Part shown: one piece after another, positions 11,718-37,300 of the stretch | Layout: each line of letters opens with the position of its first letter | Position numbering within the stretch: the stretch's first letter is position 1 | IMG/VR virus record: IMGVR_UViG_3300021400_000949 | Location: 15,880-79,879 of that record | DNA from: a virus | Lineage: Duplodnaviria > Caudoviricetes | DNA: 64,000 bases | Reading direction: 5' to 3' (one strand) | The notes under the pieces: model-generated | What the model saw: the letters and a program-made list of their open reading frames with translations, nothing else | What the model was told of the DNA's origin: nothing | Database searches by the model: none | Position numbers and translations under genes: made by a program

Positions 11718-11748
11718 ATTCTTAGAAGAAAGAAAGAGAGGTAAAATT

Positions 11749-13892: not shown

Positions 13893-14101
13893 CAAGAGAA
13901 GAAATTTTAGGAATTAAAGAAGTATTTAAAGAAGGAATGGGAGTTTATCTTTATGAGATGCAAGGTGAGCCAAATATGTTTGACTTAAAAGGTGAAGTTT
14001 TATATGTTGATGATATAGGACAAGTTCATGTTAGATGGGAAAATGGTAGTAGCCTCGCGTTAAATGTAAATTGTGATAGTTATAAATTACTAGAAAGGTA
14101 A
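13889..14101 (+). CDS. DUF4314-like SH3-fold protein
   Basis: G.V.YVDDIGQVHVRWENGSSLAL pattern. Confidence 0.7.
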   Translation: MTREEILGIKEVFKEGMGVYLYEMQGEPNMFDLKGEVLYVDDIGQVHVRWENGSSLALNVNCDSYKLLER

Positions 14102-14104
14102 TCC

Positions 14105-15157
14105 ATGGATTATAAAGAGATTATTGATAATTTAAAAATTGAATCGGTAATCGAATTAATGAAAAAACTCGGCGCGGATCGATATATAGAAAAAGAAACT
14201 CATATAATTTTTCCAACAATTTGTCATAATACTGATGCGGCAACTGCATCAATGAAACTTTATTTTTATAAAGATACAAAGATGTTTGTTTGTTATACAG
14301 AAGATAGTAATATGTCTATATTTAAATTTTTAAAGACTTATTATGAAACAAGACAAATTGAGTACGACTGGTTTGAAGATATATATAATGTTGTGTTAGA
14401 TTGCGCAAATTTAACAAAAACAGAAGGCTTTGAACCTGCGCGATATGATTCTTTAAAAGAAAGGTATAAAAAGAAAAGACAAACTCCTGGTCTTCCAAAC
14501 TATCCAAAGAATATTTTAGATATATTTACCAAGTATTATCCTGTTGAATGGTTAAATGATGGTATATCTAAAAAAGCTATGGATAAATATAATATTCGTT
14601 TTTCTATAAGTCAAAATAAAATCATAATTCCGCATTATGATGTTGAAAATAATTTAGTAGGAATTCGAGGCCGCGCCCTTAATCAATGGGAAGTTGAAAA
14701 TGTCGGTAAATATATGCCGGTTCAAGTAGAAGGTAAATGGTATAAGCATCCATTAAGTTTAAATCTTTTTGGATTAAATCAAAATAAAGAAAATATTAAA
14801 AAATATGGAGTTTGCTACGTTGGAGAGGCAGAAAAGTTTTGTCTACAATGTGAAAGCTTTAATATGGCTAATGTTTCTGTTGGGGTATGCGGCAGCCAGT
14901 TTAATAAATACCAATTAAATCTATTATTAAAATATTGTAACCCAAGAGAAATAATTATATGTTTTGATAAAGAAGAAAAAGAAGGAGAACACAAATATTT
15001 CGATAAATTATATGGTATTTGTGAAAAGTATAAAAATTACTGCAACTTTTCTTTTATCTATGATACAAAAAATTTATTAAGGTTAAAAGATTCACCTACC
15101 GATAGAGGTGAAGAAATCTTTAAAGAATTGTTAAGAGAGAGAGTAATAGTTAGATGA
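14105..15157 (+). CDS. DNA primase
   Basis: Zn-binding TICHN..C; IIIPHYD..LVGIRGR; Toprim YVGEAEK and IIICFDKE; KDSPTD. Confidence 0.8.
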   Translation: MDYKEIIDNLKIESVIELMKKLGADRYIEKETHIIFPTICHNTDAATASMKLYFYKDTKMFVCYTEDSNMSIFKFLKTYYETRQIEYDWFEDIYNVVLDCANLTKTEGFEPARYDSLKERYKKKRQTPGLPNYPKNILDIFTKYYPVEWLNDGISKKAMDKYNIRFSISQNKIIIPHYDVENNLVGIRGRALNQWEVENVGKYMPVQVEGKWYKHPLSLNLFGLNQNKENIKKYGVCYVGEAEKFCLQCESFNMANVSVGVCGSQFNKYQLNLLLKYCNPREIIICFDKEEKEGEHKYFDKLYGICEKYKNYCNFSFIYDTKNLLRLKDSPTDRGEEIFKELLRERVIVR

Positions 15158-16866: not shown

Positions 16867-16867
16867 T

Positions 16868-16896
16868 TTGATTTTTTATTAAAATTTTGGTATACT
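16868..16896 (+). promoter_or_regulatory. Sigma70/A-type promoter
   Basis: TTGATT-17nt-TATACT, extended TGn. Confidence 0.7.
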
Positions 16897-16926
16897 ATAT
16901 ATAGAAAGTAAGAAAGAGGTGAAGGA

Positions 16927-19900
16927 ATGGAGAAGTTAAGATATAGCGGAAGTTTACATAATCACACGATGTTCTCAAACCTTCGTCTACGTGATTGCAT
17001 TATCAAAGAAGATGAATTAATAAATTATGCAATAGAATTAGGACACAAAGTAGTGGCAATAACTGACCATGAAAGTGTTTCTAATTCTATTAAAGTACAA
17101 AAGATTTATAAAAAAATTAAGGAAAAGAACCCAGATTTTAAGATTATATTAGGAAATGAGATTTATCTCTGTAGAAATGGTTTAAATGCAGACAATTATA
17201 ATAGTGAAACAGATAGATATTATCATTTTATACTTTTAGCGAAGGATGAAATTGGACACAAGCAGATAAGAGAAATCTCAACAAGGGCATGGCGTCGTAG
17301 TTATATGGCGCGCGGTATGCGTAGAGTTCCAACTTATTATCAAGATTTATTTGAAGTAATTGGCGCGAACCCAGGTCATGTAATTGGATCAACGGCATGT
17401 TTAGGAGGTGCATTACCAACTCAGATTTTACGTGGAACATCAGAAGATAAGCTGGAAATATGGATTAAACAATTAAATAAGTTGTTTGGTCAAGGAAATT
17501 TTTATCTTGAGATGCAGCCATCAAATAATAAAGACCAGATAACTGTAAATAAAAAGTTGTTAGAGTTTAGTAAGAAGTTTAATGTGCCTTATATTATAAC
17601 AACAGATAGCCATTATTTAAAAAAAGAAGATAGAGCAATTCATAAAGCATATTTAAATGCGCAGAATGGTGATAGAGAGGTTGATGAATTTTATGCAACA
17701 ACGTATATGATGTCAACCGAAGAATTAGAAAGTTATTTTAAGTATTTTGATGATGAAGTTTTACAGAAGGCTTATCAAAATATTTTAGATATTGCAAATA
17801 AATGTGAAGATTATGATTTGATGAAACCTTTAAGAATTCCGGATTTGGTATGGAATACACCAAAGCATCAGGTCGCGCCGAGTAAATATTATGATAAGAT
17901 TCCATATCTTAAAACCTTTATGGAATCAGATTATATAGGTGACCATAAATTATGTAATGCAATTATTGAAGGAATTGAAACGCATCCCGATCTTCAGAAT
18001 GATAGAGCTTATAATGAGATAAATTCAAATCTTGAAATGACTTGGATAAGTTCAAAAGTAAATAATGCACATTGGTCAGCATATTATTTAAATCTTCAAA
18101 AGATAATTGATTTATGCTGGGAAGCGGGATCAATAGTAGGGCCAGGAAGAGGCTCAGGTGTTGGCTTTATATTGTTATATGTTTTAGGTATAACACAGAT
18201 AAATCCATTAAGAGAGACAACTCGTTGTTTTTCTTGGAGATTTTTAAATCCAGAACGTGTTAGTGTATTGGATGTTGACTTTGATATTGAAGGAAACCGC
18301 AGAAATGATGTTTTAAATAAATTTAGAGAGTTTTATGGTGATGATAGAGTTGCGAACGTTGCAACTTTTAGAACAGAAAAGTCAAAAAGTGCAATTCTTA
18401 CGGCGGCACGTGGTTTAGGAATTGATGTTGACATCGCGCAGTATATTGCAAGTTTGATTCCAGCAGATAGGGGTCAATTAAGAAGTCTTGACCAGTGTAT
18501 GTATGGCGATAAAGAAAATGGTTATAATCCGATTAAACAATTCGTATTTGAAATGACGGAAAATTATCCGGAATTATGGAATGTAGCTCATAGAATTGAA
18601 GGATTGGTTTGTGGATATGGAATGCATGCCGGCGGTGTAATTTTCGTTGATGAACCTTTTACAGAATCAACTGCATTAATGCGTGCGCCAGATGGTACGA
18701 TTTGTACACAATTTGACTTGCATGACTGTGAAGATGTTTCATTAATTAAGTATGATGCGTTATCGGTTGAAGCGATGGATAAAATTCATAATTGCATTGA
18801 TTTGATATGTGATTATGGATATGCAAAACGTGAAGCAACTTTAAAAGAAACTTATGAAAAACTGGTTGGAATTTATAGACTCGAAAGAGATAATAAAGAA
18901 ATGTGGAAAAAAGTTTGGAATCATGAGATACAAAGTTTGTTTCAAATGGAAAAACAATCAGGTATTCAGGGAATAGCAACTTTAAAGCCAACTTCAGTTG
19001 ATGATTTGGCAATCTTAAACTCAACTATTCGATTAATGGCGCAAGAAAAAGGCGGAGAAATGCCAACCGAAAAATTGGCACGATTTAAATCGAATCCGAA
19101 GGAATGGGATAGAGAGTTAGAGAGATATGGTTTAGGTCAAAAAGAAAAAGATATATTAAGTCCAGTTTTGGGAATGTCATATGGATTATGTATTGCGCAA
19201 GAGCAATTTATGGAGTTAGTTCAATTACCAGAACTTGGCGGTTTTTCATTGAGCTGGGCAGATAAACTTCGTAAATCAATAGCAAAGAAAAATCCAAAGG
19301 AATATGACTCGTTAACAAAAGAATTTTATGAAGTAACAAAAGAAAAAGGAATTAATCAACGGTTCGCGCATTATGTGTGGGATGTGTTGATAGCAATGAG
19401 TAAGGGTTATGGATTTAACCAGTCTCATACGTTAGCTTATTCATTAATTGCATTACAAGAAATGAATTTAGCATTTAAATATCCGATAATCTTTTGGAAT
19501 TGTGCGTGTTTGATAAATGATAGCGGCGGGATCACGAGTCTTGAGGAAGAAGAGGAAGAAGAATTAGAAAAAGAAGAAATAATATATGATAATACTTTAG
19601 ATTTTTCTTCAGAAGATGAGGATTCTGACGATGAAGATGAAGTAATAGAGAAAAAAGTTGATAAAAAGAAAAAATCAAAAGCAGTAAACTATGGAAAGAT
19701 AGCGAGTGCGATTGGTAAAATGAAATCAGAAGGTATTGAGGTAGCGCCGCCGAATATTAATACTTCAACTTTAACTTTTTCTCCAGATGTAGAACATAAT
19801 GTAATTCGTTATGGGCTAAGTGGAATAACAAAAATTGGTGAAGATTTAATTCAATCTATTATGAAAAATAGACCATATAATTCATTAGATGATTTTATCT

Positions 19901-20883
19901 CAAAAAATAAAGTGTCAAAACCGCAAGTTATTAATTTAATAAAATGTGGTGCATTTGATGAATTTGGTGATAGAATGGAAATAATGGAAGATTATGTTGA
20001 ATCAATTAGTGATAAGAAGAAAGAATTAAATCTTAGAAATGTGAAAATGTTAATTGATTTTGGTCTGTTACCAGAAGAGTTAGATTTTCAAAAAAGAGTG
20101 TTTAATTTTGATAAGTATTTAAAGAAATTTAAATATGATAAGTATTATGAATTAAATGAACAAACATTACCATTTTATGAAAACAATTTTGATATGGATT
20201 TGTTGGAAGGAGATGGCGCGCGACTTAGTATAAAACAAACTGAATGGAAAAAGATTTATGATAAGCAAATGGATGTTATTAGGAAGTATATAAAAGCTAA
20301 TCATAATGAATTATTAAAAAAGGTTAATAATAAATTATATAGTGATATTTGGGATAAGTATTGTTTAGGTAATTTAAGTAAGTGGGAAATGGATTCAGTT
20401 TCATATTATTCTCATGAACATGAATTAGCGCATGTTAATATGAAATATTATGGGTTTTCTGATTTTAAAGAAATGGATGAAACACCGGATATTGAAAGAG
20501 TTATTACAATAAAAGGTAAAGAAATTCCGATTTTTAAGATTAAAAGAATTATAGGAACTGTTTTAGATAGGGATAAATTAAAGAAAACCGTAACTTTATT
20601 AACAACAAGTGGCGTGGTGACTGTTAAAATTTATGGTGATGTATTCACTCATTATGATAAGCAGTTAAGTGAAAAAGGTGCAGATGGGAAAAAACATGTA
20701 ATTGAAAAATCTTGGTTAAGTAGAGGAAATAAAATTATAGTGTGTGGAATTAGGAGCGAAGATGGTTTTTTAGCAAAGAAATATTCAAGAACTCCGTGGC
20801 ATTTAGTTGAATTAATAACGCAGATTAATGAAGATGGAACAATTCAAATTCGTAGTGGAAGAATGGATGAGGTAGAGGAATGA
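16927..20883 (+). CDS. dnaE: DNA polymerase III alpha subunit (DnaE-type, family C)
   Basis: PHP LHNHT / AITDH / TTDSHY; GPGRGSG; FLNPERVSVLDVDFD; HAGGV; KYDAL; YGFNQSH; PPNINTS; no TAG in 1318 codons. Confidence 0.95.
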   Translation: MEKLRYSGSLHNHTMFSNLRLRDCIIKEDELINYAIELGHKVVAITDHESVSNSIKVQKIYKKIKEKNPDFKIILGNEIYLCRNGLNADNYNSETDRYYHFILLAKDEIGHKQIREISTRAWRRSYMARGMRRVPTYYQDLFEVIGANPGHVIGSTACLGGALPTQILRGTSEDKLEIWIKQLNKLFGQGNFYLEMQPSNNKDQITVNKKLLEFSKKFNVPYIITTDSHYLKKEDRAIHKAYLNAQNGDREVDEFYATTYMMSTEELESYFKYFDDEVLQKAYQNILDIANKCEDYDLMKPLRIPDLVWNTPKHQVAPSKYYDKIPYLKTFMESDYIGDHKLCNAIIEGIETHPDLQNDRAYNEINSNLEMTWISSKVNNAHWSAYYLNLQKIIDLCWEAGSIVGPGRGSGVGFILLYVLGITQINPLRETTRCFSWRFLNPERVSVLDVDFDIEGNRRNDVLNKFREFYGDDRVANVATFRTEKSKSAILTAARGLGIDVDIAQYIASLIPADRGQLRSLDQCMYGDKENGYNPIKQFVFEMTENYPELWNVAHRIEGLVCGYGMHAGGVIFVDEPFTESTALMRAPDGTICTQFDLHDCEDVSLIKYDALSVEAMDKIHNCIDLICDYGYAKREATLKETYEKLVGIYRLERDNKEMWKKVWNHEIQSLFQMEKQSGIQGIATLKPTSVDDLAILNSTIRLMAQEKGGEMPTEKLARFKSNPKEWDRELERYGLGQKEKDILSPVLGMSYGLCIAQEQFMELVQLPELGGFSLSWADKLRKSIAKKNPKEYDSLTKEFYEVTKEKGINQRFAHYVWDVLIAMSKGYGFNQSHTLAYSLIALQEMNLAFKYPIIFWNCACLINDSGGITSLEEEEEEELEKEEIIYDNTLDFSSEDEDSDDEDEVIEKKVDKKKKSKAVNYGKIASAIGKMKSEGIEVAPPNINTSTLTFSPDVEHNVIRYGLSGITKIGEDLIQSIMKNRPYNSLDDFISKNKVSKPQVINLIKCGAFDEFGDRMEIMEDYVESISDKKKELNLRNVKMLIDFGLLPEELDFQKRVFNFDKYLKKFKYDKYYELNEQTLPFYENNFDMDLLEGDGARLSIKQTEWKKIYDKQMDVIRKYIKANHNELLKKVNNKLYSDIWDKYCLGNLSKWEMDSVSYYSHEHELAHVNMKYYGFSDFKEMDETPDIERVITIKGKEIPIFKIKRIIGTVLDRDKLKKTVTLLTTSGVVTVKIYGDVFTHYDKQLSEKGADGKKHVIEKSWLSRGNKIIVCGIRSEDGFLAKKYSRTPWHLVELITQINEDGTIQIRSGRMDEVEE

Positions 20884-21995
20884 GTATTGGCTTATTTGAT
20901 ATGGACTTCGCTACCTACATGCCTCTCATGTTTAATCTTGAAATAATGAAACTTTCTACTTATTTTAAAAGACAAAGAGAAGTGGTTTTGTTAATGCCAG
21001 AGTTGGATACGGACCGCTTCTCCAAGGTCTTTATTAGGAAGGATTATGATGATGGAAACTTTGATAATAGGTTTTTTCTTCCACACGTAACATACGGCGG
21101 CCGCGCCTTTAATAAACTAAAATATATACCATTGCCACAAGAACAAGAGGTATGCCGCCCCGATGAGAGTATATATAGTAGATTTGCTACTAAATATAGT
21201 TATCAATAGAATAATGACATTCTATTTAAAATGATGAGTCGCGCCGAACACGTGCGACTTACACAAGACGGCATAAATATATGGGAACCGGGTTTTAAAT
21301 ACTTTGGATATAATACTGGAAAAGTACTAATAGTGCATGATTATGATTTAGGCTCTGTTAAAGATGGTGATTTGGTTGTAAAGGATTTAATGGCGGTTTT
21401 ACGAAAACGCAATCCGATAATGACAGATTCTTATCTAGGATTAAAATTTCCAATTAATGTTTATAATGATAAGGATTTTAAAAAATGGGAAGAAATAAAG
21501 GGCGCTCGTAGTTTTTATACAATTTAGTATAATGGAGATTTTAATACAGACCAAATACTTGAATATGCTTACGGCGTGGCTCGGCAAAATATCAGTTATA
21601 ATCTAAACTATAACGTAACCTATGGATCATCCGATGAGAATGATTTTATAGAAAACCATCTATTAAAAATTTTTAGGCAAGTTTTATTTTTATAGAGCAT
21701 ACATCAAAAAATTACACTTATATATGATGATGATTTTTTCATAGATAAGCGATGGGAAGAAATTATAAAGTTATTTAATCTTTATCTTAACTTTTCTAGC
21801 AACACAAAAAATAAATCTTTATGTACTTTATTTAGTTATTTAACTTTTCCTTTTTGGCAGAAGTTATATGACTATGATGTGGAAAGAATTAAAGAATTAT
21901 TTTAGTTAGTTAGAGTAAAAAATTATGAAACCTTTAAGTTATTTTATAAGTTCCCTAATGATTTTATATAGGAGATGAAATTAGATGACAGGTAA
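20880..21995 (+). CDS. Radical-SAM-like phage protein lacking the CxxxCxxC motif (5 TAG read as Gln)
   Basis: One frame joins track ORFs 20880..21209 and 21231..21527 and runs to TAA 21993; N-terminus IGLFDMD..FNLEIMKLSTY resembles phage radical SAM B12-binding-like N-termini. Confidence 0.5.
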
Positions 21996-22179
21996 TGAAA
22001 TAAAAGAAAAAATTGAAACAAATAATAAAATAATAGAGGGACTTCTATCTCCAAACCAGTTTACATTGAATAACACAATAAGAGAACTTTTAGAAGAAAA
22101 TAAAAAGCTTCAGGATCAATGCAAACACGTATTTGAAGGTGGATATTGTATCTATTGTTATAAAGGAGAAGAAAAGTAA
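21985..22179 (+). CDS. Small hypothetical protein with C-terminal Zn knuckle
   Basis: Coiled coil then CKH..CIYC. Confidence 0.6.
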   Translation: MTGNEIKEKIETNNKIIEGLLSPNQFTLNNTIRELLEENKKLQDQCKHVFEGGYCIYCYKGEEK

Positions 22180-22392
22180 ATGGAAGTAGTATTATATTCA
22201 ACACATTGCCCAAAATGTGCGGTTCTCGAACAAAAACTTGATGCAAAAAAAGTTGATTATGAATTAATAACAGATGTAGCTACAATGCTTTCTTTAGGAT
22301 TCCGCCAGGCTCCAATTTTAAAGGTAGACCATAAATATATGAATTTTATTGAAGCTAATCAATGGATTAATAATTTGGAGGTAGAAAAATGA
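22180..22392 (+). CDS. Glutaredoxin-like protein (NrdH-type)
   Basis: YSTHCPKC, QAPILKVD; upstream of nrdD. Confidence 0.85.
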   Translation: MEVVLYSTHCPKCAVLEQKLDAKKVDYELITDVATMLSLGFRQAPILKVDHKYMNFIEANQWINNLEVEK

Positions 22393-24308
22393 ATATTAAT
22401 GTTAAGTTAAATAAGAATTTTACTACCCAATTTAATAAAATGCTTGAGACCTACGGAGAAGAGTTCGCGCGCCTTAACGGTTTTGCAGATGAGCAATTAA
22501 GTTATACGGATTTTATCCAAAACTTTATTGATAGTGAAACAGTGGCCGATGTTTCTGTAGATGGTAACGCAAATGTTGGAAGTAAGGACATGCGTACTCT
22601 CATGAACGAAATGCCGAAGTCACATAGAAAGCTTTTAGCATATAATAAGATTTATTATGAGTTAAATAAGAAATATGGCTTTAAAACGGCTAATGATTGG
22701 CTTAATAAGGAATGGAACAAAGCGCTTTATCTACATGATGCAGATACTTCAACATTTGTTCATTATTGCTTTGCTTATGATTTAAAAGATTTAGCTGAAA
22801 AAGGGTTATTCTTTTTAAACAATTTTAACGCAGAGCCGCCAAAGCATTTAAGCACTTTTGTTGATTTTGTTAAAGAATTTATTAGTTTTACATCTAATAG
22901 GTCATCCGGTGCGGTGGGACTTCCAAATATAATACCTTATATGTATTATTTCTGGAAGAAAGATTGCAAAGATGGTTATGCAACAAAATCACCTGAATAT
23001 TATGCTAAACAGCAAATTCAGCGCTTTGTATATGCTATAAACCAGCCATATGTGCGCGATGGTATGCAAAGTGCCTTTACAAACGTATCTGTATTTGATC
23101 ATCCATACCTTGAAGCATTGTTTGGTGGAGCTACCTTCCCAGATGGCTCTTTCATGATTGACTCTCTTGATGAAATTTGCGAATTTCAAAAGATGTTTAT
23201 GGAAGAAGTGGCAGAAATACGTAGTCATAATATGATGACTTTCCCAGTATTAACAATTTCCCTTCTTCGCGAAAATGGAAAATTTACTGATGAAGAATTT
23301 GCCCGTTGGGGAATCGCGCATAATATGAAGTGGAATGATTCCAACCTCTTTATTGATGATTCAGTTACAAGTCTTTCTAACTGCTGCCGCCTTAAGAGTA
23401 ATATTGAAGATTTAGGCTACTTTAATTCAATTGGTGGAACCGCCCTCAAAGTAGGTTCTGTAAAAGTTTCAACGGTTAACCTGGCGCGGCTCGCTCTTGA
23501 ACATCCAAACAATGAAAAAGATTATCTCGTAGCTCTTAGAGATTTGGTCGAGCTTGATTGTAAAGTATTAGATGCGGTTAGACATATAATTCAGAGAAAC
23601 GTAGAAAAAGGATTACTTCCTAATTTCTCAAAAGGATTAGTTGACTTTGAACATCTTTATAATACAGTTGGTATAATTGGTATTTATGAAACGATGAAAA
23701 CTTTTGGATATACAAAAGAAGATGAATTTGGAAATGTATTTTATACAGAAGAAGCTGATAAATTTGGTAAAAAAATCTTTGAAGTAATTCATCGTACAAA
23801 AGACCAGTTCGCGCTTGATAAGGACTATAAAATAAATCTTGAGCAAATCCCAGGAGAGACTTGCGCGGACAAATTCCAAAGAGCGGACGAACTTTTATAT
23901 CCAGAAACTGTTGTAAAAGACCTTCCACTTTATGGTAATCAATTTATACCACTTGGAATTAAAACAACTATTCAAGAAAGGGTAAGAATAGCAAGCCTTT
24001 TTGATAGTTATTGTAATGGTGGTTCGATCGCGCACATCAACATAGAAGCACCATTTGACTCATTTGAAAAAGCTTGGGAAATGACTAATTATATTGCAGA
24101 TCAAGGTCTTACTTATTTTGCTTTTAATGTTAAAATTCAAGCTTGTAAACATAATCATGCTTTCTTTGGAAAGGTTTGTCCAATTTGTGGCGAACCAGTA
24201 GCTACTGAATATACAAGAATTGTAGGTTTTTATACTCCAATTAAAACTTGGTCAAGCGCACGAAAAGCAGAATATAAAATGAGAGAATGGGAGAGAATAA
24301 ATGGCTGA
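22389..24308 (+). CDS. nrdD: Anaerobic (class III) ribonucleotide reductase, no ATP cone
   Basis: LYLHD, HYCFAY, QSAFTN, TFPV, SNCCRL, EQIPGE, GGSIAH, Zn site C..H..CP.C, glycyl motif TRIVGF. Confidence 0.93.
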   Translation: MNINVKLNKNFTTQFNKMLETYGEEFARLNGFADEQLSYTDFIQNFIDSETVADVSVDGNANVGSKDMRTLMNEMPKSHRKLLAYNKIYYELNKKYGFKTANDWLNKEWNKALYLHDADTSTFVHYCFAYDLKDLAEKGLFFLNNFNAEPPKHLSTFVDFVKEFISFTSNRSSGAVGLPNIIPYMYYFWKKDCKDGYATKSPEYYAKQQIQRFVYAINQPYVRDGMQSAFTNVSVFDHPYLEALFGGATFPDGSFMIDSLDEICEFQKMFMEEVAEIRSHNMMTFPVLTISLLRENGKFTDEEFARWGIAHNMKWNDSNLFIDDSVTSLSNCCRLKSNIEDLGYFNSIGGTALKVGSVKVSTVNLARLALEHPNNEKDYLVALRDLVELDCKVLDAVRHIIQRNVEKGLLPNFSKGLVDFEHLYNTVGIIGIYETMKTFGYTKEDEFGNVFYTEEADKFGKKIFEVIHRTKDQFALDKDYKINLEQIPGETCADKFQRADELLYPETVVKDLPLYGNQFIPLGIKTTIQERVRIASLFDSYCNGGSIAHINIEAPFDSFEKAWEMTNYIADQGLTYFAFNVKIQACKHNHAFFGKVCPICGEPVATEYTRIVGFYTPIKTWSSARKAEYKMREWERING

Positions 24309-24510
24309 AAAACCGATAGAAACAGTAAAAGTTCCTAGAAAACAAATAACAAAATTAGCAAAATCAGTAGAACGTTATGAAGCTAATATGCCAATATCTT
24401 TGGAATATGTTTTAACTTTTTTATTCCCTTCTGTTTGGAATAATATGCAACGTTCATTACAAGATCAATATACAAAGGGATATTTAGATGGAAAAAACGA
24501 TAGAGATTAA
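24301..24510 (+). CDS. Hypothetical protein
   Basis: 69 aa, overlaps flanking genes in operon fashion. Confidence 0.55.
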   Translation: MAEKPIETVKVPRKQITKLAKSVERYEANMPISLEYVLTFLFPSVWNNMQRSLQDQYTKGYLDGKNDRD

Positions 24511-24973
24511 AGGTGTAATATTTGAAGATTTTGTAAATTACAAAAAAACTTCTATGTATATTGCTTTTCCTAAATGTGATTTTAAATGTGATAGAGAGTA
24601 TGGCTGTTCTATTTGCCAGAACAGCTCTCTCGCTCATTATCCAGCGCAAACCGTTAGCATTGATAGACTACTTGAAAATTATAAGTTTAATCCAATTACT
24701 CACGCTTTTGTGCTAGCGGGACTTGAACCATTTGACACATTTGACAAATTATTAGAATTCGTTGATGCGGCGCGCCGTATAACGGAAGACGATATTGTAA
24801 TTTACACAGGTTTTAACAAAGAAGAGATTTTAGATAAAATAAAAAAATTAGCAAAATATCCAAATATTATAATAAAGTTTGGACGCTTTATTCCTAATCA
24901 AGAGCCACATTATGACGAAGTGCTAGGAGTAAAATTAGCTAGTGATAATCAATATGCAGAGAAAATCTCTTAA
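24488..24973 (+). CDS. nrdG: RNR-activating radical SAM protein
   Basis: CDFKC......C motif, LAGLEP, IYTG, KFGRF, ASDNQ. Confidence 0.85.
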   Translation: MEKTIEIKGVIFEDFVNYKKTSMYIAFPKCDFKCDREYGCSICQNSSLAHYPAQTVSIDRLLENYKFNPITHAFVLAGLEPFDTFDKLLEFVDAARRITEDDIVIYTGFNKEEILDKIKKLAKYPNIIIKFGRFIPNQEPHYDEVLGVKLASDNQYAEKIS

Positions 24974-24976
24974 AAT

Positions 24977-25005
24977 TTGTTTTTTAAAAAGATTTTTGTT
25001 ATAAT
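24977..25005 (+). promoter_or_regulatory. Sigma70/A-type promoter upstream of thyX-tRNA-dut
   Basis: TTGTTT-17nt-TATAAT, extended TGn. Confidence 0.65.
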
Positions 25006-25028
25006 AAATATAGAAAAAAGGGTGGAAT

Positions 25029-25679
25029 ATGATAGATATAAGTAATGTTAAGGTATACAACCTTGAAGGAGCTTTTAGGGGATTAAGAAACCCCTTAAAT
25101 AGTTGGGATAAGTCTGATAGTTATTATGATGAATACCATATTTATCAGTTAGGGGAAAAAGATATGGACCTCGCACAGAGAATGATAAGTGGAGGCGCTG
25201 ACGAATCAAAATTTATGAGACAAATTATGGTGTGCTTTGATATAGAAGCCCCGCTTTATTGGTGGAAGGAATTTGATACTTATAAAGTCGGTACCGTAGC
25301 TAACTCATGTAGTACAATGCACAAACTTGCTAGTGTTCCAATAACAGAAAAAAGTTTTTCTACAAATGATATTGACCTAAACCTCCCAATTATTGATGAC
25401 GATGCAACTGATATAGGTTGGCTTTGGAAAGATATAGTGTTCTATTGTGAACAGTTAAGAAAAAAATATCTTGAAACAAAGAATAAAGATTATTGGCGCG
25501 CACTTGTGCAGATTCTACCAAATGGATGGATGCAGAAACGCACTATCACACTTAATTATCAGGTATTACGCGCACAATACTTCGCGCGCCGTAATCATAA
25601 ATTAACCGAATGGCATGAGTATTGTCATTTTATTGAAGGTCTACCTTATGCTAAAGAATTAATTTGTTATAAAAAATAA
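25029..25679 (+). CDS. thyX: FAD-dependent thymidylate synthase (phage ThyX-like)
   Basis: KFMRQI, PLYWWKEFDTYKVG..NSCSTMH, LPNGW.Q.RT..LNY..LR..R.HKL.EW. Confidence 0.8.
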   Translation: MIDISNVKVYNLEGAFRGLRNPLNSWDKSDSYYDEYHIYQLGEKDMDLAQRMISGGADESKFMRQIMVCFDIEAPLYWWKEFDTYKVGTVANSCSTMHKLASVPITEKSFSTNDIDLNLPIIDDDATDIGWLWKDIVFYCEQLRKKYLETKNKDYWRALVQILPNGWMQKRTITLNYQVLRAQYFARRNHKLTEWHEYCHFIEGLPYAKELICYKK

Positions 25680-25756
25680 TGCTTGCCGAAGCAACTAAAT
25701 CGAGCGGGATCTGGTATATGTCCTTGAATTAGAATTAATCTAATATACCTTTTTAA

Positions 25757-25831
25757 CGGGGATTTGGGTAACAGCTAGCTCATCTGACTCTAAATCAGAA
25801 GGCCCCGGGGCGGCACCGGGATCCCCCGCCA
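25757..25831 (+). tRNA. Amber suppressor tRNA (anticodon CUA), Gln-type identity, encoded CCA
   Basis: Acceptor cGGGGAT/ATCCCCc, G73, CCA; D stem GGGT/GCTC; anticodon stem TCTGA/TCAGA with loop CT-CTA-AA; T stem CCCGG/CCGGG with atypical loop GGCGGCA. Confidence 0.9.
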
Positions 25832-25860
25832 TTTAAATTGAGTTAAAAGGAGAATTAAAA

Positions 25861-26076
25861 ATGTTAAAGTTAAAGACAACAGAAGAATATCGTACAGAGA
25901 GCGAAGGAGAAGCAAAAGAAGTTATGGAAAAGTTCCGTAATGAAGCTAACGAAAAGGGATATGGAATTGCTTCATGCGGCTATACGTATAAAACAAAAAA
26001 AGCAAAGGGTGAGATAATTGATTCGGCATATGTGGTTAAAGTTGTTAAAGTTTTTAATTCTGTATTTGATATATGA
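25861..26076 (+). CDS. Hypothetical protein
   Basis: SD AAAGGAG; 71 aa. Confidence 0.65.
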   Translation: MLKLKTTEEYRTESEGEAKEVMEKFRNEANEKGYGIASCGYTYKTKKAKGEIIDSAYVVKVVKVFNSVFDI

Positions 26077-26088
26077 GGTATGTAAGTT

Positions 26089-27021
26089 ATGGCAGATAAT
26101 ATAATACAGTTTCCAGAGCAGAATAAAGAAGACAATAACATCCTTACAAAATCTTTTGATACACTTTCTGAATTAATACCTGACTTTCAAGGAACAGAAG
26201 ATATTGCAGCAATTTTGGCCTTGCCGGATGACCAGTTTAAGGTGGTCGCGCCAATTGTTTTAAGTGAGTTAGAGCGCGCGATTAATAATACGAATGATAA
26301 GTTATTACTTGTTCAGGGATTAAATGTCGCTGGCGTTAAAGCAGAAGATTTAGTAGGCGCAGCAGATGAGATAAATGCAGCGATAGATAAAGAATTGACC
26401 TCAATCCCACAGATGAAGCGCGACTTCGTAAAACAAGTTATCGGAATGGTTTGTAATGCAGTTGCAGATACAGAAGGCATTTCAAAGAAAATTATTCAGA
26501 TACCTATTGAATATTGCCACCCTGATGCAAAAATGCCAGCTTATGCTCATGTAACAGATAGTGGACTTGATATTTATGCAGTAGAGGATATTACTATTCA
26601 TCCTGGTGAGACAGTATTGGTTAAAACAGGTATAAAAGTAGCCTTGCCACTGGGATATGAATTACAAGTACGCCCAAAGAGCGGCCGCTCGTTAAAAACA
26701 AAAATGCGTGTTGCTAATACTCCAGGGACAATTGATTCTGGATATAGGGATGAAATTGGAGTTATAATTGATAACATTGAAGCTCCAATTAAGGATATAA
26801 CAGTTGACGATGATGGAAAAGTAACTTCTATACTTTATGGAAGTGATATGCATATTACTAAAGGAGATAAATTCGCGCAGCTTGTGTTATGCGAAGTGCC
26901 AAAGGCTAGTTTTTACGAAGTTGAACATGTTAGTGAAATCGGTGAAGATAGAGGCGGCGGCTTTGGAAGTACTTCTATTTATGCTAAGGATGACCCAAGA
27001 TATGGTACCGATCTTACTTGA
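26089..27021 (+). CDS. dut: Trimeric dUTPase with long N-terminal extension
   Basis: SGLDIY, RPKSG, GTIDSGYRDEIGV, FAQLV, RGGGFGST. Confidence 0.9.
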   Translation: MADNIIQFPEQNKEDNNILTKSFDTLSELIPDFQGTEDIAAILALPDDQFKVVAPIVLSELERAINNTNDKLLLVQGLNVAGVKAEDLVGAADEINAAIDKELTSIPQMKRDFVKQVIGMVCNAVADTEGISKKIIQIPIEYCHPDAKMPAYAHVTDSGLDIYAVEDITIHPGETVLVKTGIKVALPLGYELQVRPKSGRSLKTKMRVANTPGTIDSGYRDEIGVIIDNIEAPIKDITVDDDGKVTSILYGSDMHITKGDKFAQLVLCEVPKASFYEVEHVSEIGEDRGGGFGSTSIYAKDDPRYGTDLT

Positions 27022-28813: not shown

Positions 28814-29368
28814 TTAAATACCTATTTTCCAACCGCCGCTTGTTTTTACATAAGGTATACCTTGTTTCCATCCATTGGTAGTTTTTATATAAACAATACC
28901 TGTTTTCCAAGTAGTGCCTATTTTAATTCTAACAACTCCTGCGGCTTTAGCACTTAACTTAAAAGTCTATCCTGCAGTGCCACCACTTGGAGTAGTACCA
29001 TCCCAAATACAAGAACCAGTAGAACCAGTGGTCTAAGTGATCCTTATATAAAAACCGGTTTTTTCCCAGTCAGTATATCCACCAGTATCATAGGTAAAAG
29101 AAAATTCTATAGGATAACTAGTAGAATGCACCCAAGATTCATTTGTATCTTTTATTAAAAGAGAATATATCTCTGTATTACTACTATCATATACCTTTAA
29201 GGTACGATTATTACTAGTACCCAAATTAGTACCTGAACCAAGAGTAATAGTTATTTTACAATTAGCAGTTACTATTTTTTGATTACGGGTTATAGAATTA
29301 AGCTCTAATTTATAATAAGTATTAACAGAAGTTTTTGCCGTTTCTTTTTCTATTAATGTTGTAGCCAT
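28814..29368 (-). CDS. Tail-fibre-associated protein with C-terminal WK repeats (2 TAG read as Gln)
   Basis: Read-through gives ...IGTTWKTGIVYIKTTNGWKQGIPYVKTSGGWKIGI*. Confidence 0.65.
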
Positions 29369-29379
29369 AACTTAACTCC

Positions 29380-31029
29380 TTAACTATATTTAATATAAAT
29401 ATCGCCAAGTGCGCCGCCGGATGGATCGCCCGTACCATAGCTTATATTTCTAGCATAAAAACCAGTATCTCCATTAGGAGTAAATTTTATTTGATAAGTT
29501 GGAGCATTCGTATCTGAACTATAGTTTGTATCTGTCATATATGATAAATAAACTATATTACTACTTGTATAAGTCCCCAATTCCCAAGAGCCACTATATG
29601 ATTTCATAGAAATGGCGGGGAAATATGCAGTAGTATCGCTAGCAAGTGTTAAAGTTCGAAGGGCAGCTTTGGTTCGCCCATCTCTCCAGCTAGAGGGCGC
29701 AACAGTATGTACAACCTAGTTAGGAGTTACTAAATTACCAGTACCTTTTTCTAATAATATTAATTTATGAGTAATTGCACTAGAAGTATTATAAGAAGCA
29801 ACCTACACTTGTTCTCCGGCTAAACCGTCATCACTAATTCCTAACTCTAATACGCTATCCGATTCACCAGTACCTGTCATGCGTAACCATCCCTAGTCAT
29901 TGGCGGTTGCTGGATTAGAAATTGCAATACCATTTGTAAAAAGTTTTGCTCTTCCTGTAGTTACATCCATTTTCCCGTTAGTCATGGGCATAGTATTACC
30001 ATATATTTCTCCCATATAATAAGTTATATTATTATTAGTATCTACAGAAATAATTGGTTTTGATGCTCCAGTTCCATGTGCAGATAGCCATATTCCTCTT
30101 CCTCCTGTGGCACTACTACCATTTGAATAAAGAAAGATATTACCAGCCTAACTTGTACAATATATATGTCTATCGATCGTTGTTGTAGAACTTCCACTAT
30201 AAAGTTCATTCCCCGCTATTGTTCCTGTAACTGATAAATTTCCAGTAAGAGCTGAATTACCTGTGACTGTTAAGCCTTCATTAGCATAAAGTTTTGAATT
30301 AAGAACCGCCTATCTATTTCCATTAGCATCAATTAATAAGTTTAAAGTAGAATAAATATTAGTATTATTAACCACCCTTTTTGCTTCTGTCTAAATTCCC
30401 TGCCATCCACTGGTTAAAGCCATTTCTCGCACATAAGCCCTTGTTGTACCATTACTATCATTCATATAAAAACCGGCTCCATATGTATCGTTTGAAGGAT
30501 TGGTAGAAGCATTATAACGATTATCTTGTACATACCACATAGAATTAGGCCCTAATATGGCGTTACCATTAACATAAAAACGCCAGTCAGTCTAGTGCGC
30601 GGCATTAATTGTTAAATAACTAATATTCCCTAAATAAGAACCATCACTTGTAATAGAGGTAGCAGCTAATTGCGTTGTAGATTTACTATATAAAAGGCGT
30701 GATGCAGTTATCGCAGTTTGCCCTGTACCTCCTTTACTAACAGGAAGCGTTCCATCAATATTATTCACTTTAACTCTTGCAAAAGGCACCTCAATCGTCC
30801 CATTATTATTTATATAAAGAGTACTAGCAGATGTATAAAACCCTAATTCAAACTTTTTTAAAACGTTTTCATAATAAGTGGTCCCCTAAGCAAATTCACT
30901 ACCTTCAAATAGAGTATAAGTATTACCATTTTTTGTATAATAGCTTTTACTACTATTTGGTGTTGTATCATCTGTCTCAATATAGGGCGGCTCTGTGCCG
31001 CCCCTTTTTATCTAAAATATATTTGACAT
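29380..31029 (-). CDS. Tail fibre / receptor-binding protein (TAG read as Gln)
   Basis: Track fragments share one frame; start MSNIF-TAG-IKRG; GTLPVSKGGTG fibre motif; C-terminal GDPSGGALGDIYIKY. Confidence 0.75.
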
Positions 31030-31057
31030 ATCTAAATCTCCTTTTAATCCTATTTAA

Positions 31058-31086
31058 AGTATAACATAAGTTTTAGCTTATGTCAA
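31058..31086 (-). promoter_or_regulatory. Near-consensus sigma70/A promoter for the tail fibre gene
   Basis: TTGACA-17nt-TATACT on minus strand. Confidence 0.75.
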
Positions 31087-31090
31087 ATTT

Positions 31091-34000
31091 TTAACTCTAA
31101 CCCCAGTTGTCACCGCCGTCAAAGATAAAACCATCAAGCGCGCCAGTATCAAGATTTATAGTAGCTGTTTTATTAGCACTAATTAATTTAATTAAATTTT
31201 TTCCAGAAGTACTACCAATAACTACTGCAGAATTTATGTGATTTGTTTCAATACCATTAATATTAATTCCAACCTAATTTTGTCTATAGCTTACAGTAGG
31301 CTAAGAATTGTATAATAAGAATGTTTTTCCATAAGTAGTTTTTGTAGTAGTTTTTATATTATTACCAATTTTACTCCAATAAACAATCCTAATATTATAA
31401 AATTGCCAAGTAGGTAAATTTGATAAATCTATATTGGAACCACTATATTGAGCTGTTCCATTAGTAATGCTGCCTAAACTTACCTAACTACTACTTAATT
31501 CACCTTGTGAAGTTAACCATTTAGTGGTAGTAGAAGAAAAATTAGAAGTGGTAGAAAACTAAATTCCATAATAAGCATTAGTAATATTATAATAATAATT
31601 ATTTTCACTAATAATACCAGCACCGTAATCGGTTTTTCCATTTAGAGTTGGTAATGTAAAAGAGTACCCAAATGTTTTATTGGTTAAATCATAAGTAGGC
31701 TATTGCTAATCAAAATCAAGACTTGCAAGCGCACAATGTCTTTGAGAAATATATTCGACATTTTCTGCAATTATCGGTATTGTTTTTCCATCCTAAGTTG
31801 CCTTAATTCTAAAATAACAATACTATGAATTATCTATTTGACCAACTGTAAATGACTAATTTATATAAAACTCAATAGCAGAATTAGTTGTACGAGAAAG
31901 ATTTTCCTATTTAAAAGTAGAACCATAATCTTTCCAATCATTATCTGTTAAATTTTCTAAAGCAGTTTTAGTCATTGTTATATCAGAACGATAAATCTAA
32001 GGGGTAAAAGTTATATCAGAAGTACTATAAGTTTTTGCTTTTTCATTTTCAGTACCAATCCAATATGTTAAATTATCTTTTTCTTTTATAATATATCCTT
32101 TTGTATCTATATATGTCGCACCATCCATACTTAACTTTAAATCAGGTGTTTCACTAAAACTAAAAGTTAGGCCCCATTTAGTATAATAATACGATATACC
32201 AAAAACATCGGTAAATTCAATACAAAAACCAACAGATTCATTGCCACTCTTTAAATATAAACCTAATTCATTAGTACTCCAATTATAAAGTCCAGATGTA
32301 GCGTATGGTCCACCTCTTTTTGTTTTTATAATTGTAACGCCTTCTGAAGATTTTCTATTTTCAGCTTCTACAATAGCAACCATTTTTCCATTGGCAGAAA
32401 GATAAGCTTTAGCTTCTTTACCTGTACCAGAAAAATTATTACCACTGATATAATTTTTAAAAATTATATTAAAATTAGTATCATCGGTAAAAGGATTAAT
32501 TTTTGTACTTCCATCAAAAGTTATATCATTTATACTAAAAACTCTATTTGTGCTACCCTCTGAAACTTTTGGTGCACCAGTTCGAGTTATATTATAAGTT
32601 TTTGAATTAAATGCAGAAGTTCCTCCCCAAGCTGATTTTAAGGAAAGAGTTAAAGTATAAGTAGTCCACTAAGCGGTGTTAGATATTACTAAAGGTATTT
32701 TTCCACTAGAAGAAAAAGACGTAGTATCATTTAATCTAACCTAGGCGTTACCAGAAATTGTTGGTTCTACTGTAACAGAACTATCTATATAATTAACCTT
32801 AGTACTCATGTACTAATAAAAACTTTTATGTAAAGAGCCATTTACATCAGATAAATTTAGAGTGTTCCAAATATCACTATTTAAAGATGGTGCCGGAGGA
32901 ATAACACAATACCCTTCACTTATAATTTCGCTACTTTGTTCTCCTAATTTATCTGTAACTATACATCTTATTTTATAAGCTTTTCCCCAATCTCCATTGG
33001 TAGGATAAGAATAATTACATGAATTAGTGGTAGTAGTTGTAGAAGTATAATCTTTTACAACATTATTAAAAGTTGGAGTGGTAGCCCCACCACTATAATC
33101 ATAAGTTCTAATATTCCAAGTATAGCTCGCCACTCCACAAGTAGAAGTAACACCAGTTATAGTAGCTTTTCCTGCAGTATAATAATAATCTTTTAACCAG
33201 TTAGTAATTTGGTTAGAAGTATATTGACTTGTTCTTGTCAAAGTTAAATTTTTCCCATCGGCAGACGGCTTTACATTTTTGGTAAAACTTTTACTACTTA
33301 CCGAACTATATTCACCTAGTGAATCTTTTGCCCAAAAATAATAAGTACCTCCAGTACTAGTTGACCAAGAAGTCCCTGTAATCGCGGTCGCCCCACTAGT
33401 AGAATTTGTAGTATTTCGATAATAAGTTATAGTGTGTCCATCTGCATCACTTGAACTAAGAGAAAAAGTAGCCGTACCATTAGATTTTATATAATTAACA
33501 TTGTTTAATATTGTAGCTCCACTCAGAGTAATGGTTGGTGCGGTTGGTAATGTGTTTCCTTTAACCGTATTAGTACTAGTTTCTCCACTTGAAGGGCCGT
33601 ACCCAGAAATAGTTGGTATAGCCTTAACAATAGCAGAATAAGACGCACCTCTTCCTAAATTTAAATTTGAAAAAGTAGCAGAAGTAGTAGTTGTAGTTTT
33701 AGTTGTACCATTTAAAGTAACTTCATATTGTTTAATAGCATTATTAGTACCAGCTGTTCCAGCTGCCCAAGAAACTGTTATATTAGCATTTGGTGTAACA
33801 ACAAGAGGAGTAGTTGAGCTACTATTAAATTTAATACTACTTGCTGTGGGGTTTGAGACGTTTGTATATCCCGCAGCAACAGATAAGGTTTGAGTATAAT
33901 ATCTAACCTAATTACTTATACCAGTGTCTAGCCTCTCACCAATAAACATATAAGATTTCGCGCCACCTGCGAGCCCCTAATTAGTTGCGCTTCCAGATAA

Positions 34001-34351
34001 AAATAATGCACAATTTGAAAAAGTTTTTGCTGCGTTATCAGTAATAGTCCAACTTACATTAAAAGTTAATCCTGATTTAGGAATTGAGTTTTTATTAAGC
34101 GGACGAGTCGCTATCTTCTATCCATCACCAAAACGAGTCCCTCTATCAGTAGGCGCGCCTGTACCTGTTGTATTTGCAGGAGACACCCCATAACATAAAT
34201 GAACATATAAATCAGAAGAGTCATTTTCTGATTTACCATTTCCGTAAATTGTACCTGAAGCGGTAATAATAATATCACTGCCGCTTCTTGCAATACTTAA
34301 AGTATATTCACAATTTATAACACTACTTGTAGAAGCATAAATTTTTGCCAT
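31091..34351 (-). CDS. Large S/T-rich tail protein with Ig/FnIII-like domains (TAG read as Gln)
   Basis: Track ORFs 34118..34351, 32813..33241 and 31997..32383 are in one frame separated by TAG; NTLPTAP..DADGHT..YYFWAKD, ends FDGGD. Confidence 0.75.
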
Positions 34352-34364
34352 ATTTTACTCCTTT

Positions 34365-37300
34365 TTATGACACATAAAGGTCATAACCTATTAAATTATT
34401 ATCACTATCACTAACCTACTAATATTTCATTTTATCTCCAAAATGAACTTCTCTGTCTATATTAACTATTTGAGAAGATAAAGTAGTTTTATCTATTCCT
34501 TCATCATTTTTTATTAACATTTTAGAAATATTATTAAATTTTATTTCAAAATTTGTATTAAGAGATAAATCACTTATTTCTAAATCAGGAGATTCTCCTT
34601 TTTCCTATATACCTATTATTTTATCGTTTTTAATAGTTAAATAAAAAGAATCATTTGTCGATTTTGTGTTAAAAGTATCTCCGATAAAATCAATAATATT
34701 ATTATTAATTTTTATAAATTTATTATCACCATTTGAACTAAAGCTACTATCATTAATTCTTAATAATTCCGTGTTTGATCTATCTGAAGCAAATATAATA
34801 CCATTAGTTGTATCATGTATTGTTAATGCGGCGGCATTATTTTCGGTACCACCATATATATCAATCGCATATAACTTAGAAGCTGTTAATGTTGCTGCAC
34901 TAATTGAAGCTTCAGTAATTATAGAACCTGTAAAGTAACCTTGCCTTGCATAAAATGAACCATCTTCAGTTACCTAAAAAGGTGAATCTTTTATATCATT
35001 ATCTTTATTACTTTTTGCACCGGCCCAAAATACTATTCTTGACCGATCTTTATATGATACAGGTTTATCATCAAAAATATTAGCATGGACTCCATCTCTA
35101 GTATTAACACCTGCATATGTGGTTTTTGTTCCATCACTATGTTTAACTTCTGTAACCAAGCTACCGGTTAAATAGACATTTTCTCCATAAAGACCATAAC
35201 CAGTAATATTATCTAAATTTAACTTAGTTAAATTACCTAATAATAAGTTTGGTCTTCCTTCATGAGAACCATATTGATTTACTCCAATAGCATCAATCAT
35301 GGTTAAAGCTTCTGGATATAACATTTTATTTTGATGACTTTGAGAATTTATACCAATCACTAAATTATTTGCATAAACTGGCAACTAAATATAATAAGTT
35401 TTATTTTCTAGAGGAGTTATATCTTCTGTTTGAAAATAACTAATTTCATAATAATTTATTCCTTCTTCAAAAATAGAACCTTCAAATTTTATATAATTAT
35501 TATTTTCATCTTTTATATAATATTCTTTTTCTAATTGTGGAAAATCATCCTAAGTTATTATATAAGTTTTTTCATAATAATTAATTTCTGGCTCAAAATT
35601 AGTGCCATTAAACTACTCATATTTTACTTTTCCAGTTAAATCTGCTATCTGTAAAACTGTATAATTATGTTTAACATCAAAATTTCTATTTGTTTTTACA
35701 GTATATTTATGATAAAATTCATCAATTGTATAATAAGTTTTTCCTTCTATATAAGTTTCATCTTCTGTTTCAATATATCTATTAATTTTTTCATAATAAG
35801 TTACACCAACTTCAAAAGGCTAATCAGTGCCAATATACTCTATATACTCTTGACCATTTAATATATAATAAACTTTATCTAATACTGGAGTTTCATCTTC
35901 TGTTTCGATATACTCATCAATCAATTCATAATAAGTTATTCCATCTTTAAAACTATCAATCTCAATTTTATTATAAACAGGCCCTATTTCATTAATAATA
36001 CCATATATTTCTTCTGAGCTATCTTCTTTAGAAGTAAATAAAACTATGGTTCCTATATCCCAGGTAATAGGAGTTTTGGTTGTAAAAATATAACTATTTA
36101 CCTAACTCTCTAAAGTATCTATTTCAGAGCTTTCTTTAAAGATCATTGCTCCACCGACTGCTTGAACCTTACCAATTTCAAATATTGCAGTATGTAATGT
36201 ACCAGTTATATCAACATCTTTAAAAACAGACCTGTCTGATGTAATGGTAACGTTGGGACCAGCGATTATTTTAGCATTAGGATCATCTAACTATATAGTT
36301 GAAGTCTAACCATCTACTTCAATAGAACCTAAGTTCATAACTCCGTTATCATAAATTTTTATATAGCCATTATTAACACTATTATTGCCCGCACTAATAA
36401 ATAAATGATCATGTTTTGTTGGTTCATAAATATAGGCATTACCTAATTTTAAATAATCATCAATTTCTGCCCCAATCCCTAATGTAATTTTATTAGCAAT
36501 TATAGAACCATCAGCACCATTTAACTATATAGACTATTCTTCATCAGTGGATGTTAACTAATTATTTGCAATCTAAAAACCGCCAATAATACCGGAAGCC
36601 GCACTTATATCTCCTGCAAAATCACCTTCCATCGCCTCTAATCTACCAGAAAATATTCCTTTTTTAGCTTCAATAGAACCATCATTATGCACTATAAAAT
36701 TATTATTAGCATTTATAGACTAGTCTGTATATAATTCATAATATTCTTTACCCTATTCAAATTCAGAACCTTCAAATACTCCATAACTACCGTTTTCTTG
36801 AACATAATAATATGTCTTACCTTCCTACTTTTCCGTATCAATTGTAGGTATATAAGAAGGACCACTCATTAAAATAATACCATTGTTTTCGTCTTTTAAT
36901 GAATAAATAGATGTACTACCTATAGTAAAACCACCGATATTACCTTTAGTAGCTTCTATTGCTCCACTAAATCTACCAGTTGCAGCGGATATATCACCAG
37001 AAAAATCACCGGTTACACCTTCCAATCTACCTGTAAAAACGCCATTATTAAAAGTACCATTATTAGCAATTATAGAACCATTATCATACATAATAAAATT
37101 ATTATTAGCATTAAATACTTGTCCTACTTGCTCATAATAGGTTTTATCTGCATTAGGTATAGTATCTGAAGTTACATTATAAGTATTAGTACTTTCATCA
37201 TATTCATAGTATGTTTTTCCCGTTATAAAAGAATCTCCAACTGCAACTTCATCATATCCATAAACATAAGGATTATTAGGCAAATTACCAATAGCAATAT

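Follow-up and report, generated by a model that had tools for sequence, protein, structure and literature searches.

A putative glutamine-inserting amber suppressor tRNA with a non-canonical elbow in a TAG-recoded gut phage

Suppressor tRNAs that decode TAG are established in phages using genetic code 15 (Borges et al., bioRxiv 10.1101/2021.08.26.457843; PMC9523058; PMC10607447). Carriers of such suppressors, by which TAG is translated as glutamine, are found among the crAss-like and Lak phages and the Garnet, Amethyst and Topaz phages (bioRxiv 10.1101/2021.08.26.457843) and include phAss-1 (PMC10607447). TAG suppressors were detected in only 40% of the TAG-recoded phages, and non-canonical tRNAs that go undetected were proposed as an explanation (Borges et al., bioRxiv 10.1101/2021.08.26.457843). 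The tRNA gene described here lies in a 64,000-nucleotide stretch of IMG/VR record IMGVR_UViG_3300021400_000949, which as a whole is called the window in the following. It resembles the known code-15 suppressors in its CUA anticodon, which lies in a loop of 7 bases between U33 and a purine at position 37, in serving a genome that uses TAG for glutamine mainly in late genes, in the lack of a phage synthetase and in its probable charging by the host. A distant relationship exists with phAss-1, whose TerL is 37% identical and whose Sup-CUA has U1·C72, G73 and an acceptor strand starting with UGGGG. However, the suppressors of phAss-1 and of the sister phages described below have canonical elbows and are found by standard programs, whereas the tRNA of the window combines the D loop AACAGCUA with the T loop GGCGGCA and goes unrecognized by ARAGORN. 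With the tRNA-Gln(CUA) of Escherichia coli supE (glnV44), which likewise inserts glutamine, it shares U35, A37, G73, G2-C71, G3-C70 and G10, and with E. coli tRNA-Gln the acceptor start xGGGG; it differs from supE by C1·C72 instead of U1-A72, by A38, by the elbow and by a host that is probably a member of the Bacillota. A third group of relatives are the odd-elbow tRNAs in phage tRNA arrays, which also have G55 together with an AG D loop, show the G54/G58 variant and have canonical neighbours. Unlike these, the tRNA of the window would be an indispensable stop-codon suppressor, and it has a canonical counterpart in a sister genome.

The gene forms a 75-base cloverleaf (Table 1), and every base named in the original prediction, which was made from the sequence alone, is found at its position. 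Six acceptor pairs, among them G2-C71 and G3-C70, follow below the C1·C72 mismatch, U8 and U9 are the two bases separating the acceptor stem from the D stem, position 38 is A, and the variable region consists of the 4 bases AGGC. Of the near-universal elbow set, G18 and G19 in the D loop and U54, U55, C56 and A58 in the T loop, only G19 and C56 are possibly kept.

Table 1. Coordinates of the features discussed; positions refer to the window unless a locus is named
Feature	Position	Strand	Description and basis
tRNA-Sup(CUA), Gln-type, non-canonical elbow, encoded CCA	25757..25831	+	sequence; RF00005 30.4 bits; R1 81.8 bits; nine assemblies
Acceptor stem, 5' strand CGGGGAU	25757..25763	+	C1 opposite C72 (25827), unpaired; sequence, homologues
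Acceptor pairs, positions 2-7 with 66-71	3' side 25821-25826	+	strands CGGGGAU / AUCCCCC
D arm	25766..25781	+	stem GGGU/GCUC; sequence, homologues
D loop	25770-25777	+	AACAGCUA, 8 bases, read as A18 G19, without GG
Anticodon arm	25783..25799	+	stem UCUGA / UCAGA (5 bp), loop CUCUAAA
Anticodon CUA	25790-25792	+	7-base loop; U33 and A37 flanking
T arm	25804..25820	+	stem CCCGG/CCGGG; sequence
T loop	25809-25815	+	GGCGGCA, without UUC; G54 G55 C56 G57 G58 C59 A60
Discriminator G73 and encoded CCA	25828..25831	+	G73 at 25828, CCA at 25829-25831; sequence; G73 in all CUA members
Swapped cassette	25676..25822	+	sole stretch within 16720-26972 not aligning to L259 (blastn)
Largely TAG-free block	4996..27021	+	topoisomerase, DNA polymerase III alpha, NrdD, NrdG, ThyX, dUTPase; ORF ends, PHROG
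TAG-dependent late structural block	28814..63169	-	includes portal and TerL; ORFs under TAG = sense, PHROG matches, Pfam
Second odd-elbow tRNA, Gln(UUG)	L315:8086-8156	+	T loop GGCGGCA, D loop AACAGAA, A1-U72, G73, CCA

ARAGORN at default settings called no tRNA in the window or in the record, and Rfam at gathering thresholds gave no match when the whole 64-kb window was searched. When 400 bases were scanned in sensitive mode, and likewise when the whole record was scanned, the general tRNA model RF00005 recognized the gene with a score narrowly above the gathering cut-off of 29 bits (E = 1.6e-4), a match that the default filters lose on the 64-kb window. In this match the 5' strand of the acceptor stem is out of register by one base, and there are two mismatches; the homologues favor the register originally proposed. 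The minimum-free-energy fold of the single sequence carries no signal (z = -0.2). Relaxed ARAGORN (-ps80) lists the gene among 26 mostly spurious calls and was discarded as evidence. A covariance model, R1, was built here from A1, an alignment of 17 odd-elbow sequences; odd-elbow tRNAs generally score 60–80 bits with it. None of 18 odd-elbow tRNAs was called by ARAGORN, and of 16 family members examined with Rfam at default settings 13 went undetected, as did the window's own copy.

Is this gene the only source of a CUA anticodon in the phage? The record is a 79.9-kb fragment of a genome of roughly 101 kb, and within it RF00005 and R1 give one match each, both to the tRNA of the window. Exact protein matches led to a 101-kb scaffold (ERZ28612952 scaffold_180) that is 99.4–99.8% identical to the record, and through it the 25.6 kb absent from the record are covered by the loci L305 and L315. 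This part encodes canonical tRNA-Met(CAU), tRNA-Thr(UGU) and tRNA-Pro(UGG) (L315:2191-2267, 7295-7370 and 7652-7729) and a second odd-elbow tRNA, tRNA-Gln(UUG), which escapes both ARAGORN and Rfam. The two Gln-type tRNAs of the phage (CUA and UUG) thus have the odd elbow and its Met, Thr and Pro tRNAs the canonical one. A second CUA tRNA is present neither in the 79.9-kb record nor in the 25.6-kb remainder; another, canonical CUA tRNA elsewhere in the genome was the finding that, according to the original prediction, would have spoken against a functional gene. Nine independent assemblies, which come from different samples and sources and include the 101-kb scaffold, all contain the gene without a single difference, so an assembly artefact is ruled out. 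The phage tRNAs with the anticodon CAU (L315:2191-2267 and L316:1659-1732) also leave position 1 unpaired, C1·C72 or C1·A72 depending on the isolate; they have A73 like the bacterial initiator but are without the three G-C pairs of the initiator anticodon stem.

The need for a suppressor becomes apparent from the late genes. In the half of the window coded on the minus strand, genetic code 11 gives only short ORF fragments; with TAG as a sense codon this half contains ORFs of 2216 aa (45 TAG), 2440 aa (62 TAG) and 1086 aa (18 TAG), as would be expected for the amber suppressor proposed originally, and TAG makes up to about 2.5% of the codons of the late genes. Pfam families of the SPbeta Yon/Yom type are found on genes identical to genes of this late block. 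The tRNA gene itself sits inside the largely TAG-free plus-strand block, in which the genes at 4996-20883 and those from NrdD to dUTPase contain no TAG and end at identical stops under code 11 and under TAG = Q, the exception being one gene (20880-21995) with 5 TAGs. The local gene order is ThyX, tRNA, a 71-aa ORF and dUTPase. This next ORF begins 29 bases past the CCA and is preceded by an AAAGGAG ribosome-binding site, and a scan for promoters and terminators revealed neither a terminator between the tRNA and this ORF nor a promoter-like site upstream of the tRNA on the plus strand.

Which amino acid is inserted was addressed by aligning four TAG-bearing genes with orthologues, among which those of L263, L264 and L266 are standard-code genes without TAG. 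Where these three relatives agree unanimously on a residue opposite a TAG, it is glutamine in 10 of 27 columns against a background of 3.0% (P = 2.9e-9), and no other residue occurs in more than 2 of the 27. A codon comparison with a 94–97% identical sister phage yielded too few changes to name a residue and was replaced by the comparison with the standard-code relatives. As judged from these alignments, TAG is read as glutamine in this gut phage, corresponding to genetic code 15. Moreover, recoding is patchy within the clade because L263, L264 and L266 have no TAG in genes where the recoded phages (that of the window, L259 and L265) do. In these three relatives, the proteins of which are 60–70% identical, TAG is absent where the genes of the window carry 5–18, and there is no tRNA at the ThyX-dUTPase locus. 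In the recoded relative L265 the NrdD gene was called in two parts that flank a GIY-YIG endonuclease gene (L265:3441-6515), which suggests an intron- or intein-type insertion.

The unusual elbow is not confined to this gene. When IMG/VR and metagenomes were scanned with a pattern specifying no more than the T loop and the CUA loop, so that the D loop was free, six further distinct CUA tRNAs were recovered (L083, L084, L169, L201, L213 and L220), making seven together with the window. All six have a D loop of the form A-N-C-A-G and never GG, a pyrimidine·pyrimidine opposition at 1·72, and G73. The closest to the tRNA of the window is L084/L204 with 61 of 72 bases identical, and the phage carrying it has no clear protein similarity to the window phage, which points to horizontal transfer. 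Most loci with other CUA members also acquire long open frames once TAG is taken as sense. A second scan, with the D-loop motif CAGC and the T loop fixed and the anticodon free, found the same elbow, among the matches listed, on tRNAs for Glu (UUC, CUC), Gly (UCC), Asp (GUC) and Gln (CUG). Altogether, the anticodons seen with the same T and D loops are CUA (7 distinct sequences), CUG, UUG, UUC, CUC, GUC and UCC, the contigs with odd-elbow tRNAs range from 31% to 70% GC, and in other phages the elbow is found on sense tRNAs for Glu, Gly, Asp, Gln, His, Val and Lys. No cellular copy of the CUA form was found, as none of the 17 pattern matches in genome contigs passed the cloverleaf filter.

Stem differences between the members are compensatory, at pairs 27-43 and 29-41 in comparison with L084 and at pairs 49-65 and 50-64 in comparison with L083. 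In the 17 sequences of A1, 96.6% of the stem cells are paired and both sides change in 18 of the 21 pairs; as the set was pre-filtered for pairing, these values attest consistency and are not an unbiased test, and the invariance of the T loop was imposed by the search patterns. Sliding the partner strand by 1–3 columns leaves 29–43% of the cells paired. The covariation within the elbow was assessed by running R1 on five whole records, which returned mixed sets of tRNAs. The D-loop GG is absent from all 14 tRNAs with G55 and present in 13 of the 14 with U55 (Fisher P = 7.5e-7; 5.6e-6 after removal of the training sequences). The T loops of the G55 tRNAs are GGCGGCA, GGCAGCA, GGCAGUA, AGCGUCA, AGCAUUA and UGCGACU, and positions 54 and 58 occur only in the combinations U/A, A/U and G/G. 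From this covariation we infer contacts A18·G55 and G54·G58, and the original suggestion of an elbow that was rebuilt jointly instead of decaying is borne out at this level. Pairing of D-loop G19-C20 with T-loop G55-C56 was considered and dropped, position 20 being U or a gap in some members. At the 15-48 (Levitt) pair, A1 contains A15/C48, C15/A48, U15/U48 or U15/A48 and not G15-C48 or A15-U48; further core contacts beyond the elbow may also be rewired.

Among deposited phages the locus had no blastn match, and the tRNA alone matched only tRNAs of the mycobacteriophages Trixie and Kalpine, which have canonical elbows and have only the D stem and anticodon arm in common with it. An exact 38-base pattern had no match in IMG/VR, loci retrieved through ThyX were too distant and contained no CUA tRNA, and a portal-based locus search found nothing. 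GOLLD RNA (RF02032) occurs at L164:2703-3165 (-, 212 bits) and L163:2822-3292 (-, 165 bits), in both cases within phage tRNA arrays that also contain odd-elbow tRNAs. Full-text literature searches found no description of the A18/G55, G54/G58 elbow, and in the paper on long tRNA arrays (PMC8421152) the terms 'T-loop', 'G18', 'U55' and 'elbow' each have zero occurrences.

How might such a tRNA be charged? In E. coli, GlnRS recognizes U35, G73, G2-C71, G3-C70, G10 and a weak or open 1-72 pair, and the enzyme opens the 1-72 pair. This identity set was reportedly worked out by Jahn, Rogers and Soll in 1991 and by Rould and colleagues in 1989. All of these features are found in the tRNA of the window, that is those on which a GlnRS-type identity had originally been proposed (G2-C71, G3-C70, G73 and a weak 1-72 position) and G10 in addition. 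Among the CUA members, G73 and the open 1·72 alone are invariant; L201 and L083 have different pairs at 2-71 or 3-70. Position 1·72 is a pyrimidine·pyrimidine opposition in all 7 CUA members and in the CUG member (8 unpaired), whereas the odd-elbow members for Glu, Gly and Asp have seven clean acceptor pairs. The open 1·72 is also found in the canonical-elbow suppressors of sister phages and in Sup-CUA of phAss-1. The mismatch is therefore not tied to the odd elbow, with which the original prediction had grouped it. The alternative route to Gln-tRNA depends on GatCAB, and the bacterial enzyme recognizes U1-A72 and, via the tail of GatB, the D loop (PMC2811023). The tRNA of the window has C1·C72 and a changed D loop and thus provides neither determinant, which makes a host GlnRS acting directly the likelier route. 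A synthetase or release factor of the phage itself had been suggested as worth searching for; the 79.9-kb record contains neither an RF-1/RF-2 domain nor a GlnRS/GluRS catalytic domain.

The nearest TerL proteins belong to Bacillota phages, led by Geobacillus E3 (47% identity) and followed by Enterococcus, Brevibacillus and SPbeta-like phages; the virion genes are of SPbeta type as well, and a Bacillota host is likely. GlnRS (TIGR00440 above cut-off) is present in 51 of the 81 Clostridia genomes sampled and absent from one Limosilactobacillus genome. There are thus Bacilli without GlnRS, and such a host would count against the GlnRS route; in a host of this kind, a CUA tRNA with an open 1·72 and an altered D loop fits the determinants of neither ND-GluRS nor GatCAB. 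Taken with the identity elements, charging by a host GlnRS is probable.

The clearest comparison is provided by a sister phage. Contig L259 is 94–97% identical to window positions 16720-36000 by blastn, and the stretch in which the two fail to align encloses most of the tRNA gene (Table 1, swapped cassette). The corresponding 778 bases of L259 encode, besides a PD-(D/E)XK nuclease, a CUA tRNA whose elbow is canonical (L259:9670-9745; D loop AAAGGUC, T loop UUCAAUU, C1·C72, G73, CCA). Canonical CUA tRNAs also occur in the gap between ThyX and the 71-aa ORF of two more distant relatives, L262 (dUTPase 69% identical) and L261 (77%), the contig of the latter being assigned to a 'Bacillota bacterium' bin. 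By parsimony, the canonical gene would be the older occupant and the odd-elbow gene a recent replacement; phages of the window type and of the L259 type are each present in many samples. The TAG load is nearly equal with either tRNA, and this is the strongest indication so far that the odd-elbow tRNA has the function of the canonical one. The nuclease gene of L259 (PDDEXK_5; L259:9120-9569) lies between ThyX and the canonical suppressor, and a homing-type nuclease may have driven the exchange of the tRNA cassette. The 2.9-kb contig L267 (560-870) contains the canonical suppressor tRNA without the part before about position 35, in the middle of the anticodon; upstream it continues into unrelated genes, with an HNH motif and a fragment resembling TrxB. 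This junction could be an insertion into the anticodon loop, a junction resembling an attachment site or a chimeric assembly; a group I intron was considered, and Rfam gave no match.

Taken together, we consider it highly probable that the tRNA of the window is the phage's working glutamine amber suppressor, charged by the host, built on an alternative elbow and recently swapped in. In this reading the tRNA would be transcribed together with the TAG-free genes of nucleotide metabolism surrounding it and be excised from this transcript. A host enzyme, most likely GlnRS, would then charge it with glutamine, aided by the identity elements and by a 1·72 position that is already open, and the charged tRNA would decode the in-frame TAGs of the late virion genes. 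The L-shape would be achieved by keeping G19-C56 and by substituting A18/G55 for G18/Psi55 and G54/G58 for T54/A58. The elbow would belong to a pool of tRNAs moving among phages, one of which would recently have displaced the canonical suppressor at the same locus.

Alternatively, the tRNA could be a deliberately weak or specially routed suppressor, in which the elbow and the open 1·72 lower the performance with EF-Tu and the ribosome or alter processing and in this way act as a timer. In E. coli initiator tRNA a mismatch at 1·72 weakens the binding to EF-Tu, and the location of the tRNA in a largely TAG-free block, with the TAG-rich genes being late, would suit such a role. Among the contacts given for the elbow in PMC4810234 are RNase P, the L1 stalk and other ribosomal sites, through which a changed elbow might act. 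However, the sister phage has nearly the same genes and TAG load with a canonical elbow, so the elbow is not required for timing, ordinary sense tRNAs of other phages use the same elbow, and canonical suppressors share the 1·72 mismatch. We regard this possibility as unlikely. The original suggestion that the elbow tunes suppression efficiency or evades defences directed at tRNAs is purely speculative.

It is more improbable still that the gene is a decaying pseudo-tRNA or a chance cloverleaf, with read-through provided by a host suppressor or another phage tRNA. Such a gene would well explain why default ARAGORN and Rfam do not call it, why RF00005 scores so low, why the fold energy is unexceptional and why G18, U54 and U55 are absent. 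Decay is contradicted, however, by the absence of a further CUA tRNA from the genome of roughly 101 kb and by the identity in nine assemblies, by seven distinct CUA homologues that maintain four stems through compensatory change while both loops stay constant, by the occupation of the exact slot that holds the canonical suppressor in sister phages, and by the long frames that TAG = sense likewise opens at the loci of other CUA members. An identity as tRNA-Pyl or as another non-glutamine tRNA can practically be dismissed: CUA, G73, the missing G18G19 and the missing T-Psi-C are shared with tRNA-Pyl and ARAGORN at -ps80 labels the gene tRNA-Pyl, but this label reflects only the anticodon and is given to the canonical sister tRNAs too, tRNA-Pyl is compact (a single base from acceptor to D stem, D loop of 5 bases, anticodon stem of 6 bp, variable loop of 3 bases) whereas the tRNA of the window has standard cloverleaf dimensions (two and 8 bases, 5 bp and 4 bases, respectively), and TAG is too frequent in the late genes and aligns with Gln, not Lys.

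If the tRNA is the working suppressor, what does it mean for TAG-recoded phages? That phages encode code-15 suppressor tRNAs was already known, and it is the body of the tRNA that differs here; the locus adds an essential stop-codon suppressor on an odd elbow, a canonical counterpart at the same locus and the open 1·72 in both types. The locus would constitute a natural test of the need for G18, U54 and U55, since virion genes with hundreds of TAGs would be translated with a tRNA that is without all three, and the canonical tRNA in the same slot of the 94–97% identical sister phage provides a built-in comparison. The conservation of the open 1·72 and G73 with both types of elbow points to how phages may recruit host GlnRS. 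A compact suppressor body that would carry neither m5U54 nor Psi55 could also be of interest for the design of orthogonal tRNAs. The gene furthermore offers a concrete case of the undetected non-canonical suppressors suspected by Borges et al. (bioRxiv 10.1101/2021.08.26.457843). More tentatively, and as a speculation that we would not yet bet on, the A18·G55/G54·G58 elbow might be a separate tRNA chassis circulating among phages, competent on the ribosome and invisible to host enzymes that read T-Psi-C and perhaps to defence nucleases, and a considerable part of the roughly 60% of TAG-recoded phages without a detected suppressor might have one of this type that tRNA finders overlook.
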